Source: Fibrobacteria bacterium (GTDB lineage: Bacteria > Fibrobacterota > Fibrobacteria > UBA11236). From it: 64,000 nucleotides of DNA. Of the stretch, positions 50,100 to 58,101 are shown in pieces; position 1 is the first letter of the stretch, and each line of letters opens with the position of its first letter. The DNA lies in contig JBGTHM010000125.1 in the NCBI GenBank assembly GCA_041746255.1, forward strand, positions 32,001-96,000. Reading direction: 5' to 3'. The notes beneath the pieces are model-generated. The model had not been told where the DNA came from. It saw only the letters and a list, made by a program, of their open reading frames with translations, and did not search any database. The position numbers and the translations under genes were made by a program.

Positions 50100-52007
50100 A
50101 TGCCGCTCAAAACCTATATCCGCCTTGCCGGCGTAAACGGATTCTTTCCCGGCCCCATCGACTTGCCCCGCCGTGAGAATTGCTATCCGCTGCTGGAAGG
50201 CGCGCACTCCGTGCGCATGTTGCGACAGCGCAGCAACGGATTTACCGGCACCCGCCACCTCCGCTTCCACGAACCTTTTTTCGCCTCCTTTCCCCTGGAT
50301 AAAGCCTACCCTTCGTTGATGCAATGCCTGTGCCATAGCGGCACTTTGCCTCTGGTGGAAATTTCGCTGTGGGATTTGGTGGAAGGGAGCTTCGAGGAGG
50401 AGCCGAAGGAAAAACGGATTTTCCTTTATACGCTGGAAAATGTGAAACTGACCCAGGTGCGCACGCTGATGCGCGTTGCAAAGCTGGACGGAAAATTGCT
50501 ACAAGCGCGCGTGGCGATGGTCTATGACAAGGTGACGTGGCTGCATGACGAGGGCTATCTCCTTTTCTGGGATAGCTTGAAGGATACGGGCAAGGAGGAG
50601 GCCAAGGAGGAGCCCGATCGGGGCGACGCGGAACCCGCGCCGGCTCCGGTTAAAAAGGTGGTCGAGGTGTTGCTGCAAAATCCCGTATGGGATTCGACGG
50701 AAGTGGGCTTCAATGAAGAAGCCACGCTGTCGGTGGAATGCCAATTGCCGGAGGAACATAAAAACCGCAAGCGAGTACAGTTCGTGCTTTTCGCCAAGAC
50801 CCCGAACGGTCCCGAGCAAATCGCCAAAGCCGACGGATTCACGGAAAACGGTCGTGCGACTTGTAAGATGCCGGTGTTTAAGCCTCAATATCACGGGAAC
50901 GGTGAGGCTCCGAAAGAAGTGGAATATTTTTTCACCGCCAAACATACGCTGTCGGAGCCGTTGGATTCGGGGGCCAAGCCCGAAGGCGTGAAGTCGGTGG
51001 ATAAGATGGCGGAACCGCTGATCGACACGCATGTGGTGGTGGGCGTAACGTTTGGATTCGATTCGAGTTTTCTGCACCCGGACCAGATTCCAAAGTTGAA
51101 AGAATTGTGCGAGAAAATCGGGGCTTGGAGGAAGAGTTATCCCGACGGTAAGATGGCGTTGTTCGGGCATACGGATGCAGTGGGTAAGGAGTCCTACAAC
51201 AAGGGGCTGTCGGAGCGGCGGGCGCGTTCGGTTTATGCGTTTTTGATGGGCGATTCGAGCGTGTGGGAGAATTTGCACAAGGAGGAGAATTGGAGTTTCG
51301 CCTGCACGCAAGCTTTGGTGAAGCAGGCGGGTTACGATCCCGGGGCGATTGACGGGTCGGATGGGCCGAAGACGCAAGGGGCGGTGAAGGGTTTTCAGGA
51401 ATCACAGGGGCTTAAGGCCGATGGGATTGCGGGACCCAAGACGCGGGAGGCATTGTTTACTGGGTTTCTCGACGCAGTGCCGGAATTCAAGGGTCTGGGC
51501 TTGAAGACGAAGAATTTTGACAAGGTGGACGGGCAGCCGAATATGGGTTGCAGCGAGTTCAACCGGGTGGAGGTCGTGGAGGGTAGGAGTGAGGCCAACC
51601 GGCGGGTAACGGTTTTGTTGGTGAAATCGAGCCAGACCTTTCCGATGGAGTATCCCTGTAAGCGCGGGAATATCGGGCCGTGCCAGAGTCAGGTAAAGAA
51701 GGCGGGAGAGCGGCGGACTAAGGGGTTCGGGTGTAAGTTTTATGATGGGTTGGTGGTGGAGGCGGTGATTTCACCTTCTGGGAGTCAGACATCGAAACCA
51801 CAAAATCGCCGGATTCGGATTCTGGATTTGGATGGAAACCCCTTACCCGATGCGGGTTTGTGTATGGACAATGGGGATAAATTGTCTCCCGATAACGAGG
51901 GCTGGTGTGAACTGACCCCGGAATACGGGTCCGCTACCGAATTTCACGTGGATACCCAGGCGATCGCAATGTATTGGAATTTGAATAAAAATGAGGGGAT
52001 AGCTTAA
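50100..52007 (+). CDS. Hcp (TssD)-like domain fused to an OmpA-like domain with an inserted peptidoglycan-binding domain and a short C-terminal beta module
   Basis: Residues 1-160 follow the Hcp1 pattern (Y.RL.G; H.V; R.HEPF; DKAYP.L...L; YTLENV; V.M.YDKVTW.H). OmpA-like FGFDSS, FGHTDAVG...YN..LS.RRA, NRRV. PG-binding GYDPGAIDG.DGPKT..AVK.FQ...GL..DGIAGPKT. Confidence 0.8.
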   Translation: MPLKTYIRLAGVNGFFPGPIDLPRRENCYPLLEGAHSVRMLRQRSNGFTGTRHLRFHEPFFASFPLDKAYPSLMQCLCHSGTLPLVEISLWDLVEGSFEEEPKEKRIFLYTLENVKLTQVRTLMRVAKLDGKLLQARVAMVYDKVTWLHDEGYLLFWDSLKDTGKEEAKEEPDRGDAEPAPAPVKKVVEVLLQNPVWDSTEVGFNEEATLSVECQLPEEHKNRKRVQFVLFAKTPNGPEQIAKADGFTENGRATCKMPVFKPQYHGNGEAPKEVEYFFTAKHTLSEPLDSGAKPEGVKSVDKMAEPLIDTHVVVGVTFGFDSSFLHPDQIPKLKELCEKIGAWRKSYPDGKMALFGHTDAVGKESYNKGLSERRARSVYAFLMGDSSVWENLHKEENWSFACTQALVKQAGYDPGAIDGSDGPKTQGAVKGFQESQGLKADGIAGPKTREALFTGFLDAVPEFKGLGLKTKNFDKVDGQPNMGCSEFNRVEVVEGRSEANRRVTVLLVKSSQTFPMEYPCKRGNIGPCQSQVKKAGERRTKGFGCKFYDGLVVEAVISPSGSQTSKPQNRRIRILDLDGNPLPDAGLCMDNGDKLSPDNEGWCELTPEYGSATEFHVDTQAIAMYWNLNKNEGIA

Positions 52008-52008
52008 G

Positions 52009-53280
52009 ATGAGTGAGAAATCCAAATCTTCCAGTTCACGAGTTGAAGTTTTCTCGAATCAGCCTTTTCAGTTGCAAGAGAATCAAAACGATGTCGACGT
52101 GGTGGTTATTCACAAGCAGGAATTGAAATTCCAAAACCTTTCGGTGGATTCGACCACTCCGAGCCTTACCGTTCAAGTGAATTCGGATGGACGGACAAGG
52201 CTTCATTATGTTCCTGAAACCAAGGTCGCCGGAGAAAGAATATCGATAAAAGGTCCAGATTTGTGTGAAATTTGGTTTCCCCGGCCCGTTAATGAAAATA
52301 CGGAATTTCTTTTTTCAGGAATTTCCAAGCCTTTTTCCATGAACATACCTTCGCGTTTCATCAATCCGGCCGACCCGATGTACTTCATGTACGGAGAGCT
52401 ACCGGGATTTACTTCTAAGCCGTCGACACCTGCTATTACCCCTTCTTCCATGGGCAAAGTTCCTCCCGGATTGGAGGATTTATTCATTACTGTGGCGGAC
52501 ACCGACAACACACTGGTTGCTGGTGAATTCCGCGAGGGGTTGAACCGTGTTGAAGATTTGAGGGAAAAGCAGAAAGGGCTTTTGGAAATATTGTTGTTGA
52601 ATACCATTTCCAATAAAAACTTGGCCGGTGCGGCAGGTCAAGTTATCGACAACTTTGGCTTGCTTTCGGATTTTGCACGTGGCGGAAGATTTTACATCAA
52701 AATAACAGATGGAAAATACTATGTCATTTTCAAGGGATACCCTGGGCTGCGGCGAATCTATACGAGTTCAAGATATCGTTTGGACAAGAATTTCACCAAG
52801 TTTTCGATGCTGACAATCGCGCAGGGCGTGACGCCTGCCCTGAAATCGGCCATCCCCAGATTGAGTAAAGGGAGTACCATCGGTTTACTATGGGTTGGTA
52901 GCACAAATACCTATTCCTGGCTGCAGGAGGATGAAAAATTCCTCAGCGATTTATTGATTCAAATGGGATCGGATATAGTTAAGGCGGTGGCAAGTACCAT
53001 TGCCGCTGCGTTAATAATAGCAATCGGAATAGTCTTCACCGGGACGTCCTTGGCGATCTTTACATTAATTATAGGAACAATATTTTTTGGATTTGCTATC
53101 GGTATGGGCCTGGACATAATCGATAACTGGCTAGGTGTTACTGATATAGTCAAAAAATATGGCAGGAAAATAAGCGCCCCTCTCGCGCCGCTTTGGAGAT
53201 CCTATATCGATGAGCCGCTTTCCAGTTTTTTACAAAAGGCAAGTTGGGAAGTCATGCGAATTGATTTGAGGTCGCCATGA
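52009..53280 (+). CDS. Putative membrane-acting toxin/effector (hydrophobic C-terminal hairpin)
   Basis: Starts 1 nt after the Hcp-fusion stop; no signal peptide; IFKGYPGLRRI motif; ~50-aa hydrophobic stretch near the C-terminus resembling pore-forming toxin hairpins. Confidence 0.55.
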   Translation: MSEKSKSSSSRVEVFSNQPFQLQENQNDVDVVVIHKQELKFQNLSVDSTTPSLTVQVNSDGRTRLHYVPETKVAGERISIKGPDLCEIWFPRPVNENTEFLFSGISKPFSMNIPSRFINPADPMYFMYGELPGFTSKPSTPAITPSSMGKVPPGLEDLFITVADTDNTLVAGEFREGLNRVEDLREKQKGLLEILLLNTISNKNLAGAAGQVIDNFGLLSDFARGGRFYIKITDGKYYVIFKGYPGLRRIYTSSRYRLDKNFTKFSMLTIAQGVTPALKSAIPRLSKGSTIGLLWVGSTNTYSWLQEDEKFLSDLLIQMGSDIVKAVASTIAAALIIAIGIVFTGTSLAIFTLIIGTIFFGFAIGMGLDIIDNWLGVTDIVKKYGRKISAPLAPLWRSYIDEPLSSFLQKASWEVMRIDLRSP

Positions 53281-54050
53281 AAGGCTCCTTGCCTGTTGCA
53301 TTAAGGTCCGAAAAAGATTTTCGGAATAGCATACGCATCGGAATCATTCCTACTTCGGTGTTTTTTTTGCTATTGCTTTTGTATTACCCTATTTCGATAG
53401 CTATGTTTATTTATTTTCCGTTCATAATTGCACATATCATTGTTATTTATATATCGAAGGATTCCTTTGGACTGCTAGCCCATCACAGGCTATTTCCTTC
53501 CATACTATTTGTGGCATGGCCTTACCTTTTTTGCTTGTTATACATCGCGTATGCAGGGAAGGCAACGCAATATCATCCGATCTATTTCCCCTCCCTTCTT
53601 GCATTGGGAAGCTTTTCATTTATTTTGACATTCTACTTCGGATTTAAGGATTGCCTGGCATTGGATGAAAAATCCGTTGAAAAACGCCTGAGGTCCGTGG
53701 ATTGGGAAACAGGAATTTATGATGTCGAAACCCATTCCCTTGAATCGGTAAATATATTCGGAGTAATAGTTGAAAGCTTTCCGACCTGGAAATTGGTTTA
53801 CCAGATTGGGTTAATCCTCTCCCCGGGTCCAATTATACTTTTTACTGCCAAACACATTTCGGGACACCTCGTATCAATAATTATGGTAGCAGTTGGGTGG
53901 GGAGGGGCCATACTATTTGGTGGAATATCGATAGAGTTAATCTATGATGCTTGGTTCTTGCGTAAAATGGAAAAAGAAAAAGGCGTTCGACTGGTTTTAT
54001 CGAATTCTACCCGTGCAAATGAAATTTTTAAAAAAACTCGGGATGAATGA
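53277..54050 (+). CDS. Multi-pass membrane protein, putative immunity protein
   Basis: ATGA overlap with the upstream gene; about 5-6 hydrophobic segments; visibly AT-rich DNA. Confidence 0.55.
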   Translation: MKGSLPVALRSEKDFRNSIRIGIIPTSVFFLLLLLYYPISIAMFIYFPFIIAHIIVIYISKDSFGLLAHHRLFPSILFVAWPYLFCLLYIAYAGKATQYHPIYFPSLLALGSFSFILTFYFGFKDCLALDEKSVEKRLRSVDWETGIYDVETHSLESVNIFGVIVESFPTWKLVYQIGLILSPGPIILFTAKHISGHLVSIIMVAVGWGGAILFGGISIELIYDAWFLRKMEKEKGVRLVLSNSTRANEIFKKTRDE

Positions 54051-54202: not shown

Positions 54203-55099
54203 TTGGTACAGAAACTGTTTCTATTCTCGGTTTTTCTTGGCAATATATGGGCGCAATCCGGTGAAGAAATCCTGGAAAAACACGGGCTTACGGACCCTGA
54301 TTTCAAACTGGACGGTTTGGATTTCTCCTCCTTAACTAAAACAGTCGACTCCAGCGTGTATTTCTATCAGGGTACTACCAATCGTTTGGATAGTATGCAT
54401 CAGCTTTATGAATTTATGTCGCCCGCACCTGAATACCGCAAGGCCACCTTTTCCTATGTAAAAAGCAAAATGGGTCGTTACGAACGTGAAATAAAGGTGG
54501 ATACAAAAACTAATGAAGTCATTTATGATGAAACTCGTCAATTCGACAAGCATGACAAACTTCTATCAGTGAATACGCTGTCCGAGTCAATGGGTAAATC
54601 CGTCCAGGGTAATACCTATGACGAGCGCGGCAATCGCATCAGGACCCTAAGTTTCAATAATGAAAATAAGGTCGTGGGAGATAATTCTTTCGAATATGAC
54701 TCCCAAAACCGTATGGTGAAATGGATAAATAACAGTTACACAAATGAACGATATCGCAAATATTACTACACAGATTTTGACAGTTTATCCGCGGAAAGCA
54801 ACGTCTACCCCGAAGAAAATCGAGAGGACATGTTTATCGTCTCTTTCTTCAACTCGGAAAAGTTACTCTGGAAATCAATCCACTATGCCTTTGACACGGT
54901 TCGGTCTCCACAACTTATTTGGTACCATCAATACGATTCTCTCCGAAGAAAGACTAACTCCTATCTCTTCCAGTGGCTGGACACCACCAAGCCTTGGCGT
55001 ATGGAGGATATGACCTTGAGGTGGCGTGAAACCTATGAAGATGATTCGCGAAACCGGCTGAAACGGAAAATCATTCGGGAAGTGGGTTTTGATGATTAG
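54203..55099 (+). CDS. Secreted protein with YD/RHS-like repeats
   Basis: Signal peptide; FDKHDKLL, YDERGNRI, YDSQNRMV, YDSLRRKT, DDSRNRL. Confidence 0.65.
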   Translation: MVQKLFLFSVFLGNIWAQSGEEILEKHGLTDPDFKLDGLDFSSLTKTVDSSVYFYQGTTNRLDSMHQLYEFMSPAPEYRKATFSYVKSKMGRYEREIKVDTKTNEVIYDETRQFDKHDKLLSVNTLSESMGKSVQGNTYDERGNRIRTLSFNNENKVVGDNSFEYDSQNRMVKWINNSYTNERYRKYYYTDFDSLSAESNVYPEENREDMFIVSFFNSEKLLWKSIHYAFDTVRSPQLIWYHQYDSLRRKTNSYLFQWLDTTKPWRMEDMTLRWRETYEDDSRNRLKRKIIREVGFDD

Positions 55100-55419
55100 G
55101 ACACAATTCTGCGCCCTGCGGCGCAGGTATGGAACAGTTCGCTGGTTATCCCGTAGCGCTGGCGGCAACCCATCGGGCAGGATGGAGTAGGTTTGTCGGC
55201 CTGATACACGCCGTTATTGTGTGGGACCTATCCCCGGGCATCCAGGAAATCGTCTATTTAGGGGAAATTAGGCGTTTACCCCCTTTGAATGCAGTCCCTA
55301 GCCTAAAAATTGAGGATATAGGCTTGCAGGGTATCGACTTAGGACCTTTTCTGCATTAAATTAAATTGAATAACCATCCCATTGGGACAATTACAATTTA
55401 CCTGACAGGGGGGGAGTCG

Positions 55420-56868
55420 ATGAGAATCGAATATTTTATCTCAGCATTATTTATTTCACTAGCGATAGTAGTCAATCCATCCCCTGCGCAAATCCCCACC
55501 AGCGTCGTGCTCAAGCCCGTTTTCGCAGGGCAGATTTCTTTCACTCGACCCGTGTATTTCAACGAAATGCCAGGTAAACCCGAGCATTATATAATCCTGG
55601 AAAGCCATTTAGGTCGTGTTTCCTTGGCGCATCGGGAAAACAACCAATGGGTCAAGAAGGAGTTCCTGAGGATTTCCATAAATAGCAGTCAGCCCGAAAT
55701 GGGTCTGCTCGGTTTCGCTTTCCATCCGGACTTCAAAACGAACCGGAAATATTACCTCAACTACAATCCAACGGGTAAGTTAGCGACGGTAATTGAGGAG
55801 CGCGTGGCCGATGTAACTTTTTTGAAGGATTCCGGGCAGCCTGGGCGCACCATCATGGAATTCGATCAGCCCTACGGAAACCATAACGGCGGCAGTTTGG
55901 AATTCGGGCCGGACGGGTTTCTTTACATTGGAACGGGAGATGGCGGATCGGGCGGTGATCCGCAGAATCGGGCGCAGAACCTGAACGTTATCCTGGGAAA
56001 AATGCTGCGCATCAATGTGAATAGTAAGGACCCCGGAAAAGAATATGCCGTACCAAAGGACAATCCCTTTATCGGCGTAGATAATACCAGACCGGAAATC
56101 TGGGCCTACGGGTTGCGTAACCCTTGGAAATATTCCTTTGACAGTGAAACCCAGGAGTTACTGATAGGCGATGTCGGCCAAAGACATCGGGAAGAAATCA
56201 CCCTGGCAAAAAAAGGCGAAAATTTAGGCTGGAAAATTCGCGAAGGAAATACCTGTTTCAATCCGAATAATGCTACCTCGCCCTTAAACACTTGCAATTT
56301 TAACGGCATGCGCGAACCGATCGTCTCCTTGCCGCGGTCAGAAGCGGAGTCCATCACGGGCGGATATGTATTCCGGGGCAGTCCGGATGCCCGTTTCACC
56401 GGGGTGTACATTTTCGGGGATTATGGCACCCGAAGGATTTGGGGATTGACGCATAAGGACGGGACCTTAATCGAGAGAGTCCAGATAGGAACCGCTTCCG
56501 GCGCGATTTCATCCTTCGGCACCGATTCGCAAGGAAATATCTACGTGGTCACCTTCAACGGAATATTCAAGCTGGAACATGCGGAGCTCCGTCCCGCGGC
56601 AACCTCTGCCCGGAAAACTAATGCCCCCTTCGGTATGGGTAAGTTTCAAGTGGTTAAAAATGCTGCCGGAACCTATTCCGTTTCCTTCCCATCCCCTTCG
56701 CACGAAAGCTTCGACTTCCACCTCTTTCGCACCGACGGTACTCTGGCGATGAAGAAAAATTCCGTCCGCACGTCCCGGAAAATCGAATTGCTAGTGAAAC
56801 CAGGCATGTACATAGCGCGAATAAAAGCGGGGGGAGCCATTAATTCGCAAACGCTTTATCTCGATTAA
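55420..56868 (+). CDS. PQQ-dependent sugar dehydrogenase (GSDH family) with a T9SS-type C-terminal domain
   Basis: EMGLLGFAFHPDF, NHNGG.L.FGPDG.LYI..GDGG, GLRNPWK, GDVGQ; tail FRTDG...PGMYIARIKAG. Start at ATG 55420 after GGAG. Confidence 0.88.
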   Translation: MRIEYFISALFISLAIVVNPSPAQIPTSVVLKPVFAGQISFTRPVYFNEMPGKPEHYIILESHLGRVSLAHRENNQWVKKEFLRISINSSQPEMGLLGFAFHPDFKTNRKYYLNYNPTGKLATVIEERVADVTFLKDSGQPGRTIMEFDQPYGNHNGGSLEFGPDGFLYIGTGDGGSGGDPQNRAQNLNVILGKMLRINVNSKDPGKEYAVPKDNPFIGVDNTRPEIWAYGLRNPWKYSFDSETQELLIGDVGQRHREEITLAKKGENLGWKIREGNTCFNPNNATSPLNTCNFNGMREPIVSLPRSEAESITGGYVFRGSPDARFTGVYIFGDYGTRRIWGLTHKDGTLIERVQIGTASGAISSFGTDSQGNIYVVTFNGIFKLEHAELRPAATSARKTNAPFGMGKFQVVKNAAGTYSVSFPSPSHESFDFHLFRTDGTLAMKKNSVRTSRKIELLVKPGMYIARIKAGGAINSQTLYLD

Positions 56869-56880
56869 TTATCTTAATCC

Positions 56881-58101
56881 ATGCATGAATGGAAACGGCT
56901 AATGTTGCAGCTTCCCGCGTTGACAGCCGCCGTATTCCTGCTTTCCTGTTCCGGCGTCGCAGGTTCCAAAGCCGAAATCGCCTCCCAATCCATTCGCTTC
57001 GAACCCGCCTTCGCAACCGGCGACAAAAATAAATTCCAATACCCGCTGTGGTTCGGCCCGGTGCCTGGCTTGACCGAAGTGTACGCGGTAGTCGAGCGTG
57101 GCACCGGTGCGCGCGATGGCCGCGTGTGGTTGCTGGAAAAAAAGGGGGACGACTGGGATAAATCCCTGTTCCTCTCCGTACCGGTGGAATCGGGCCGCAG
57201 GCAGGGGGAAGAACGGGGATTGCTGGGTTTGGTCTTCCATCCCGAGTTCGCCGAGAACCGTCGCTACTTTATCAACCGGAACCCGCCCAAGACCGGCGCG
57301 CAATCCGATTCGACTTTCATCGAAGAAAGGTGGGCCCGCGACGATTTCCGCGGTGATTCGGGCAGACCTCCCAGACGTATTCTCTCAGTGGCACAGCCCT
57401 ATTGGAATCACAACGGCGGCGGCATGGCCTTCGGTCCCGACGGGTTGCTCTATATCGGAATGGGGGACGGCGGCAGCGGCGGCGATCCGCAGGGCCATGG
57501 CCAAAACCTGGAAACGCTTTTGGGCGCCATGCTGCGCATCGACGTCAACGGCGCAGGAGAGACGGCGCCCTACTCCATCCCCACTGACAATCCCTTCGTA
57601 AACCGGCAAGGCGCCCAACCCGAAATCTGGGCATACGGCTTGCGCAACCCCTGGCGTTTCAGCTTCGACCCCCTGACCGGGGATTTATGGGTAGGCGACG
57701 TAGGGCAGGTCAAGCGCGAGGAAATCAACATTGTAACCGCCGGAGCCAATATGGGATGGGCGATTCGCGAAGGCAATCTCTGCTACCGGCCGCCCACAGG
57801 GTGCCGCGAAGAAGGGTTGACGCCGCCCATCGTCGATTTGGATCGCAATGCCGCGGCCTCCATTACCGGCGGTTATGTCTATCGGGGCGACACGGCATCC
57901 GAATATTACGGCTATTATCTCTTCGGGGATTATCAAACCCGCTATATCTGGGCACTGAAGCAGGAGAACGGGCGGGCCTCCGATTTCAAAAGAGTGGGGC
58001 GGCTACCCGCCATGATGGCGACCTTCGGCGTGGATGTCCGCGGAGAAATCTACGCCGTGGGTTTCGACGACGGTATCGTGTACCGCCTGATTCTACCTTG
58101 A
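56881..58101 (+). CDS. PQQ-dependent sugar dehydrogenase paralog, putative lipoprotein
   Basis: Lipobox FLLSC; ERGLLGLVFHPEF, NHNGG, GLRNPWRFSFD, SITGGYVYRG. Confidence 0.88.
   Translation: MHEWKRLMLQLPALTAAVFLLSCSGVAGSKAEIASQSIRFEPAFATGDKNKFQYPLWFGPVPGLTEVYAVVERGTGARDGRVWLLEKKGDDWDKSLFLSVPVESGRRQGEERGLLGLVFHPEFAENRRYFINRNPPKTGAQSDSTFIEERWARDDFRGDSGRPPRRILSVAQPYWNHNGGGMAFGPDGLLYIGMGDGGSGGDPQGHGQNLETLLGAMLRIDVNGAGETAPYSIPTDNPFVNRQGAQPEIWAYGLRNPWRFSFDPLTGDLWVGDVGQVKREEINIVTAGANMGWAIREGNLCYRPPTGCREEGLTPPIVDLDRNAAASITGGYVYRGDTASEYYGYYLFGDYQTRYIWALKQENGRASDFKRVGRLPAMMATFGVDVRGEIYAVGFDDGIVYRLILP

Follow-up and report, generated by a model that had tools for sequence, protein, structure and literature searches.

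What purpose is served by a gene for an Hcp-like tube protein that stands apart from its apparatus and is followed directly by genes for a protein with a long hydrophobic hairpin and for a membrane protein? This question is raised by positions 50100 to 54050 of a 64,000-nucleotide (nt) stretch of contig JBGTHM010000125.1 (assembly GCA_041746255.1, positions 32,001 to 96,000 of the forward strand), which is called the window below. The three genes are read here as an orphan carrier, cargo effector and immunity module of a type VI secretion system (T6SS) in a probable Fibrobacterota genome. This reading, which rests on homologies, conserved synteny and structure prediction, is given a probability of about 0.7. 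The locus appears to arrange a system of known type in a new way: an Hcp tube protein fused to a wall-binding scaffold would dock a separate membrane toxin, and the toxin is paired with a membrane immunity protein. The probable assignment of the host to the Fibrobacterota, made in the first-pass annotation of this DNA, agrees with the names of its close relatives, which are called Fibrobacteres. The features discussed are the following.

50100..52007, + strand: gene 1, 635 amino acids (aa); made up of an Hcp domain, a scaffold with peptidoglycan-binding modules and a tail; belongs to a set of four polymorphic paralogs
50100..50594, + strand: Hcp (TssD) domain of gene 1, residues about 1-165; identified by PF05638, PDB entry 4hkh and the Hcp of the same genome
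50670..51761, + strand: constant scaffold of gene 1, residues 191-554; beta-sandwich, OmpA-like domain with PG_binding_1 inserted, Cys-rich end closing with FYDGLVVE
51762..52007, + strand: variable tail of gene 1, residues 555-635; diverges from all three paralogs at residue 555; proposed docking piece
52009..53280, + strand: gene 2, 423 aa; putative cargo effector
52036..52392, + strand: N-terminal beta-sandwich of gene 2, residues 10-128; predicted local distance difference test score (pLDDT) about 90; proposed loading domain
52615..53238, + strand: putative C-terminal toxin domain of gene 2, residues about 203-410; hydrophobic hairpin at 319-372
53277..54050, + strand: gene 3, 257 aa; five to six transmembrane (TM) segments; candidate immunity protein

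The tight coupling of the three genes, which had been noted earlier, can be read directly from the junctions. The first two are separated by a gap of 1 nt (TAA-G-ATG), and the second and third overlap in an ATGA. The guanine plus cytosine content (GC) drops stepwise along the cassette, from 0.562 in codons 1-554 of gene 1 to 0.488 in its last 81 codons, 0.447 in gene 2 and 0.395 in gene 3. Promoter and terminator scans of the locus gave no signal above that of shuffled sequences.

The N-terminus of gene 1 had been described as Hcp-like, and this description is borne out by a family profile, a solved structure and an Hcp of the same genome. The Pfam family T6SS_HCP (PF05638) covers residues 18-149 with 26 bits (cut-off 23.5), and with 29.9 bits in the genome search. 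Residues 15-159 align full-length with residues 16-156 of the solved Hcp 4hkh (E 1.2e-6), and the domain is 27% identical over 166 columns to a 162-aa Hcp encoded in the same genome (E 6e-14). The constant scaffold that follows contains matches to Pfam OmpA (residues 317-384, 34.7 bits, cut-off 27.2) and PG_binding_1 (residues 406-452, 52.7 bits, cut-off 23). In the AlphaFold 2 (AF2) model, built from a 43-sequence alignment, the pLDDT is above 90 over residues 185-555, and the structures found by Foldseek for this confident part are the C-domain of OprF, Pal and macroglobulin-like sandwiches. Near-invariant residues include a GH.D...LS.RRA stretch and the junction residues C545, F547, Y548 and D549, each of which is kept in at least 90% of the 43 family members. 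In the OmpA-like domain, D359 and R373/R374 are conserved, and these residues presumably take part in the binding of diaminopimelate. Neither a signal peptide nor a TM segment is present in gene 1. With an extension of about 470 aa (about 52 kDa) past the Hcp core, gene 1 would by its sequence count as a specialised Hcp, a class defined by extensions longer than 60 aa (PMC8262886, in part). The end of the extension bears no toxin domain; it is formed by the 81-aa tail, which matches no toxin family.

The apparatus that such a carrier would require is found elsewhere in the assembly. Judged by its gene content, the genome encodes a T6SS-i on other contigs: TssK, TssL, TssM, TssA, TssB and TssC are found on one (C62), a canonical Hcp adjoining TssE, TssF and TssG on a second (C26), and VgrG on a third (C97). 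The search of the genome for T6SS genes, which the first-pass annotation had proposed, therefore finds the system, and its statement that the window holds no other T6SS gene is valid for the six families followed in whole-genome searches (Hcp, TssC, VgrG, PAAR, TssK and TssA), because the other matches sit on these three contigs and PAAR was found nowhere.

The same annotation had also proposed looking for related Hcp-OmpA genes with different downstream genes, and three more are present. Besides the canonical Hcp, the genome encodes four long Hcp fusions of 635, 651, 904 and 1110 aa. Up to the motif FYDGLVVE, which closes residues 1-554, their identity is 77-85%; beyond it they are unalignable, and their downstream genes share no similarity with one another. 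Two of them have short tails, of 81 and 97 aa. At all four loci, the GC of the constant part is 0.56-0.60, as against 0.36-0.45 in the tip and downstream genes (genome average 0.531). No orphan copy of the junction motif was found elsewhere in the genome. A constant part, a sharp junction, variable tips and different downstream genes are, at the level of sequence, the anatomy of a polymorphic toxin system.

Some details of the other paralog loci were recorded as well. The 651-aa paralog on contig C80 adjoins a gene for a Tae4 amidase effector (L009:6739-7191, +; PF14113, 71.6 bits), which overlaps by 39 bp with a convergent gene for a 226-aa WG_beta_rep protein (L009:7153-7833, -). The longest paralog, on contig C89, carries a HELAH motif of the HExxH type in its 556-aa tip (L008:8545-10212, +), for which Pfam gives nothing at E<=10. 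Downstream of it stand two paralogous genes in tandem (349 and 214 aa, 38% identity), which could have arisen by duplication of an immunity gene.

Gene 2 has no Pfam or NCBIfam match. A full HMMER search gave 299 relatives at E<=1e-3, and the conserved core of this family lies at residues about 203-410; among 149 listed non-self relatives, the match begins within the first 50 query residues in 9. When 40 relatives were scanned with Pfam, VgrG was found in three, PAAR in two (one of them also with VgrG), LysM in two and no family in 34. In the three VgrG proteins, the gene 2 domain sits at the extreme C-terminus, and one cluster member is named VgrG by its source. Across the 150 best matches, a DxxK motif is conserved (D322 in 120/148, K325 in 131/148), followed by the hydrophobic hairpin and by D372 (132/143). 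The long hydrophobic C-terminal hairpin described earlier corresponds to a single long hydrophobic stretch at residues 319-372, of which residues 326-368 follow the DxxK. The Tme toxin domain is described in similar terms: it lies at the C-terminus, an almost invariant DxxK precedes a TM helix that is flanked by a D, fusions to PAAR, VgrG or MIX occur, and its immunity proteins have three to six TM helices (PMC7046647, in part). By this motif description and by the fusions, the C-terminal domain of gene 2 is inferred to be a T6SS-linked, Tme-like toxin domain.

The AF2 model of gene 2 (mean pLDDT 77.6, predicted template modelling score 0.38) consists of the beta-sandwich at residues 10-128 and a helical domain, in which a hairpin (227-242) and long helices (287-417) can be distinguished. 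The N-domain resembles transthyretin-like and TssJ-like sandwiches at Z 6-8, a range rated as common by the tool; one such match is TssJ 6hs7_F (Z 7.8, root-mean-square deviation 2.4, 85 residues aligned). For the toxin domain, a profile search of the PDB gave only ClyA (E 0.4), Foldseek gave 0 matches at E<=1e-3, and a wide fold comparison gave only generic helical matches and no solved counterpart. A word-based search for relatives of gene 2 returned the query alone; no match was found in 31 other genomes of the same taxonomic family, in a plasmid collection (tblastn) or, with P0002 as the query, in genome contigs. The nearest clusters in a protein atlas are unnamed proteins of Pseudomonadota, and the 20 matches that were looked up as clusters yielded neither an informative name nor any Tme1 accession.

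The arrangement of gene 2 with its neighbours recurs at a distance. A gene 2 profile detects homologs at nine loci in six other genomes of the phylum, none of them in the same taxonomic family, and eight of the nine (all except the locus in G026) were examined. In 8/8, the homolog is directly followed by a multi-TM open reading frame (ORF), of 245-258 aa where complete; two run off the contig end. A hidden Markov model (HMM) built from six of these downstream proteins scores gene 3, whose multi-TM character is confirmed by five to six hydrophobic segments, with 31.2 bits (E 2.3e-7). Gene 3 is its sole match among 22,212 frames of the own genome, and the best of 500 shuffled sequences reaches 8.7 bits. 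By profile similarity, gene 3 belongs to the family of genes downstream of gene 2 homologs. On the other side, an Hcp-like protein with a C-terminal extension (Hcp-X) precedes the homolog at five loci, at one of them split into two ORFs. Two of the five carriers reach the Pfam Hcp cut-off, with 62 and 38 bits, one matches weakly (E 0.027) and two not at all, and one of the Pfam-negative carriers aligns to an Hcp-positive one with E 6e-9. Where the pair is complete, as in four cases, carrier and effector are encoded separately, 2, 3, 3 and 36 nt apart.

Two of these loci show irregularities. At L029 (743-1861, -, in G027:C115), the gene 2 homolog contains an internal TAA and has no upstream same-strand Hcp-like ORF of at least 70 aa; it may be a decaying copy. 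In G071:C334, the carrier is split into a 101-aa N-part with the Hcp match (L037:3252-3557, -; 38 bits) and a 269-aa remainder (L037:2406-3215, -), which could reflect either a frameshift or a true split.

How could a separately encoded effector be attached to gene 1? The evidence points to the 81-aa tail. At a metagenome locus (L043), a scaffold that has no Hcp is 48% identical to gene 1, and the alignment crosses both the junction and the tail, which is about 43% identical as counted by eye. After a gap of 1 nt, the tail is followed by an effector 36% identical to gene 2 (E 2e-92), cut by the contig end. Since tail and effector occur together on an Hcp-less scaffold, they move as one unit, independently of Hcp. 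Furthermore, a complex prediction of tail residues 548-635 with effector residues 1-135 gave a median interaction prediction score from aligned errors (ipSAE) of 0.65 (0.67, 0.62 and 0.65), while the best of three controls gave 0.00. The ipSAE mark applied is reached by 116 of 157 solved complexes and by 2 of 215 mismatched pairs, counts that hold roughly here, as an alignment of our own was used; a prediction of this kind supports binding and does not show it. The runs agree in at least 74% of their contacts, and the partner pLDDT is at least 65. The predicted interface comprises tail residues 569-577 and 613-619 and effector residues 9, 14, 16-22, 26-35 and 60-63. These runs of consecutive residues may be read as strand pairing, the tool itself giving contacts only.

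The following sequence of events can be proposed from these elements. The Hcp domain of gene 1 would join the tube of the T6SS-i encoded on the other contigs, and the scaffold of beta-sandwich, OmpA-like domain and PG_binding_1 would bind peptidoglycan and retain the payload in the prey periplasm. Strand pairing is predicted to dock the tail to the beta-sandwich at the N-terminus of gene 2, a mode to which the co-occurrence of tail and effector elsewhere lends support. The Tme-like C-terminal domain, as its motif and the fusions of its family suggest, would then insert from the periplasm into the inner membrane and dissipate its potential. Gene 3, as an integral membrane protein with conserved synteny, would shield the sister cells. 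Tail, effector and immunity genes probably represent one low-GC cassette joined to the carrier at FYDGLVVE, the other three paralogs carrying different cassettes. That the module is secreted, assembles into rings, binds peptidoglycan, is toxic and confers immunity is thus inferred throughout. The first-pass annotation had proposed an auxiliary or polymorphic antagonism module of a contractile injection system; in its T6SS form, this proposal is supported by the Hcp match, the T6SS-i and the paralogs. Three refinements can be added: the gene 2 domain is Tme-like and borne by VgrG and PAAR in other proteins, the tail resembles a docking piece more than a toxin, and the carrier belongs to a wider, polymorphic and mostly Hcp-less family.

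Several results weigh against the module as described. The main difficulty is size. Proteins of 10-30 kDa have been suggested to fit the Hcp lumen, and in Pseudomonas a 30-kDa addition to an Hcp cargo halted secretion (PMC8262886, in part); an extension of about 470 residues (about 52 kDa) together with a 47-kDa cargo lies far above this range. By analogy with the minor Hcps of Bacteroidales (PMC13213661, in part), mixed rings with canonical Hcp would be one way around the problem. In addition, the NCBIfam TssD model (TIGR03344) gives gene 1 34.9 bits, under its cut-off of 58.9. The AF2 pLDDT is below 50 for the tail and for the Hcp part (residues 1-180), in the latter because the alignment is shallow there, so that the model supports neither ring formation by Hcp nor a particular fold of the tail. 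PAAR was not found in the whole-genome search, and DUF1240, the main family of Tme immunity proteins, was not found in gene 3 or in its six homologs. The comparison with Tme1 is a comparison with its description. Finally, the tail shows no similarity to the Hcp-X tails of other families in the phylum, either by blastp or with a four-sequence HMM, and a word-based search for its relatives returned the query alone. It has no Pfam family match on its own, and the paralog tails gave only weak matches, led by CarboxypepD_reg on the C80 tail (E 0.29). The idea that the tail is itself a transthyretin-like domain was considered as well and is unproven, the family searches being null and the tail left unfolded by AF2.

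The absence of similarity to other Hcp-X tails and the low confidence of the modelled tail are also what gives room to a variant of the same module, in which the effector is loaded inside the Hcp rings, as has been reported for Tse2 and Ssp4, and the tail is a spacer or remnant. Loading of cargo that depends on Hcp is established for pore-forming effectors, Ssp4 among them (PMC12669606, in part). This variant is nevertheless unlikely, for it leaves unexplained why tail and effector were inherited together on the Hcp-less L043 scaffold and why the complex prediction separates the pair from its controls by 0.65 to 0.00. The 47-kDa effector is above the lumen range of 10-30 kDa, and the C-terminal 60 aa of the Hcp-X family are conserved alongside the effector too (E 1e-6). 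Docking on the tail is therefore preferred as the mode of attachment.

Is the scaffold, then, a carrier by nature? Its distribution was followed in 296 genomes of the phylum. The complete Hcp-scaffold combination occurs only in the own genome and in a genome of the same genus (G265), whose copies end at contig ends. In the sister genera, matches begin near residue 165-190 and belong to proteins without Hcp, one of which terminates in a Tle1-like phospholipase domain. Six proteins were scanned for domains; one of them comes from an unpublished genome (G254), and the conclusion is independent of it. The protein database holds 139 scaffold clusters at E<=1e-5, which, where a name is given, are called OmpA-like, MotB or 'peptidoglycan-binding protein'; several of the names mention Fibrobacteres, and some clusters bear Tle1, GH19 chitinase-like or NlpC/P60 domains. 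Beyond the copies of the own genome, only one cluster also has Hcp, a 411-aa fragment with 50% identity. The Hcp-less members open with an MNLDPF-type peptide, which is present in 37 of the 40 members inspected first; a strict pattern finds it in 51 of 117. This peptide may serve to target the proteins to the T6SS or to Hcp and may have been replaced by the Hcp fusion in the present genus. The existence of the scaffold both with and without a fused Hcp is a natural experiment and points to Hcp-dependent delivery.

Two further observations concern these relatives. The Hcp-less members (P0156-P0272; L043:3458-4969; L017:142-2778) have no signal peptide, and a Gly/Arg-rich stretch comes after the MNLDPF-type peptide. 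Hcp-scaffold fragments 74-76% identical to gene 1 were found at two loci (L012 and L013) of a metagenome-assembled genome with the record title 'Bifidobacteriales', a title which looks mislabelled because related proteins elsewhere are named Fibrobacteres.

The scaffold might represent an unrecognised class of T6SS payload carriers of Fibrobacterota, linked to Hcp non-covalently via the MNLDPF peptide in most lineages and by covalent fusion in this genus, and pinning either its own toxin or a docked cargo to the prey peptidoglycan. This generalisation is held tentatively and with some doubt. If it is true, an Hcp subunit would deliver about 100 kDa of payload that lies outside the lumen, probably as part of rings that also contain canonical Hcp, and this load far exceeds the reported cargo limit.

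The composition of the scaffold also invites another explanation, namely that proteins of the gene 1 type are not secreted and serve as wall anchors or accessories of the T6SS of the cell itself, in the manner of TagL or long TssL, with genes 2 and 3 being unrelated membrane proteins. OmpA-like domains do anchor T6SS membrane complexes to peptidoglycan (PMC8253398, in part), and gene 1 gives a weak NCBIfam match to the OmpA domain of long-form TssL (E 0.025). An anchor, however, would hardly exist as four paralogs whose C-termini are hypervariable and whose low-GC tips resemble cassettes, or have relatives with toxin-type domains such as Tle1, GH19 and NlpC/P60. It would also be expected to reach the periplasm, where peptidoglycan-binding modules act, although no signal peptide or TM segment is present, and the position of the gene 2 domain at VgrG and PAAR C-termini does not fit an unrelated membrane protein. 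The anchor explanation is accordingly very improbable.

Still less is to be said for the tail as a small toxin, with gene 2, gene 3 or both as its immunity or accessory proteins. Polymorphic toxins usually terminate in a toxin domain, and two of the paralogs are similarly short-tailed (81 and 97 aa). The tail, however, matches no toxin family, the 423-aa gene 2 product carries the domain that is terminal on VgrG and PAAR, and it has a conserved multi-TM downstream partner of its own.

Within the taxonomic family, canonical Hcp and scaffold matches (best E <=1.9e-19) occur in 20/20 genomes of genera g1-g5; in genus g6, Hcp is found in 2/12 genomes and the scaffold query matches in 2/12, both weakly (about 1e-6). 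These genomes are related, and the counts are hence not independent observations. Service to an extracellular contractile injection system (eCIS) or a phage-tail-like particle in place of the T6SS has little probability, although no search was aimed at eCIS genes: Hcp is homologous to tail tube proteins, but the best matches are Hcp proteins of T6SSs, the canonical Hcp of the genome adjoins TssE, F and G, and strong scaffold matches accompany canonical Hcp in g1-g5 and are missing from g6.

Several known systems resemble parts of this locus. Precedents exist for specialised Hcps, polymorphic toxins, membrane-disrupting effectors and multi-TM immunity proteins alike. A close comparison for gene 1 is with the Hcp-ET1-5 proteins of Enterobacteriaceae (cited in PMC8262886, in part). 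In these, too, the Hcp core is extended by more than 60 aa, the C-termini are polymorphic, candidate immunity genes lie downstream, and the orphan loci are served by a T6SS encoded elsewhere. In contrast to these, about 390 constant residues (beta-sandwich, OmpA-like and PG_binding_1) lie here between Hcp and the variable tip, the tip is in this copy an 81-aa non-toxin piece with the toxin in a separate gene, and the same scaffold is mostly Hcp-less in sister genera. The divergent minor Hcps of Bacteroidales (PMC13213661 and PMC13035841, both in part) are encoded beside particular effectors, segregate together with them and recognise them as parts of heterohexamers; unlike gene 1, they lack a peptidoglycan-binding scaffold, and their T6SS is of another subtype.

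For gene 2, Tme/Tmi offers a C-terminal toxin domain with DxxK, a hydrophobic helix and D, fusions to VgrG and PAAR, and a multi-TM downstream gene; in the consulted part of PMC7046647, Tme is reported only in Proteobacteria. Gene 3 differs from the main family of Tme immunity proteins in that no DUF1240 was found in it, and gene 2 differs from Tme by an extra N-terminal beta-sandwich. Ssp4/Sip4 of Serratia marcescens (PMC12669606, in part) is alike in architecture only, with an N-terminal domain of about 113 aa, one sheet and a helical domain with transmembrane helices; its delivery is Hcp-dependent and its loci are often orphan, whereas excerpts of the same source report the family only in Gammaproteobacteria and give no link to an Hcp fusion.

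The tail finds its parallel in VgrG. The C-terminal transthyretin-like adaptor domains of VgrG proteins bind separately encoded cargo effectors, so that in both cases a separate effector would be recruited by a short, beta-rich extension at the C-terminus of a structural T6SS component. The carrier here is Hcp, unlike in the VgrG adaptors, and the transthyretin-like fold is seen, at middling Z, only for the N-domain of the effector.

Against this background, a role of the peptidoglycan-binding scaffold of Fibrobacterota as a polymorphic carrier for the T6SS, the joining of this scaffold to Hcp and the split layout of docking tail and separate cargo appear to be unpublished. The same appears to hold for the gene 2 toxin domain outside Proteobacteria, whose members might be listed in the supplementary tables on Tme and Ssp4. 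Literature searches found no work on T6SS effectors of Fibrobacterota, and PMC11148199 makes no mention of OmpA, Fibrobacter or 'evolved Hcp'. If the carrier reading is right, about 139 clusters whose present annotation is OmpA-like, MotB or 'peptidoglycan-binding protein' would have to be reinterpreted as a polymorphic family of T6SS effector carriers of Fibrobacterota, and a Tme-like membrane toxin domain would reach beyond Proteobacteria. The question of size would also be posed anew, by a tube subunit with a 52-kDa extension and a 47-kDa docked cargo, as against the block seen at 30 kDa in Pseudomonas (PMC8262886, in part). The predicted strand-pairing interface is directly testable.

The neighbourhood of the module was also recorded. 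The upstream neighbour of gene 1 encodes a 919-aa Ig-like protein, which was considered as a part of the conserved module and rejected. On the other side, about 150 nt past gene 3 and in the same low-GC stretch, lies a 298-aa ORF (window 54203-55099, +; GC 0.425) with a hydrophobic N-terminus. Its sole match is a weak one to an RHS repeat (E 0.09), and no homolog was seen in the other loci. It is followed by a gene for a protein of the glucose/sorbosone dehydrogenase family (window 55366-56868, +; PF07995, 131 bits) and by an ORF (window 56881-58101, +) that is similar by eye to this neighbouring PF07995 protein.

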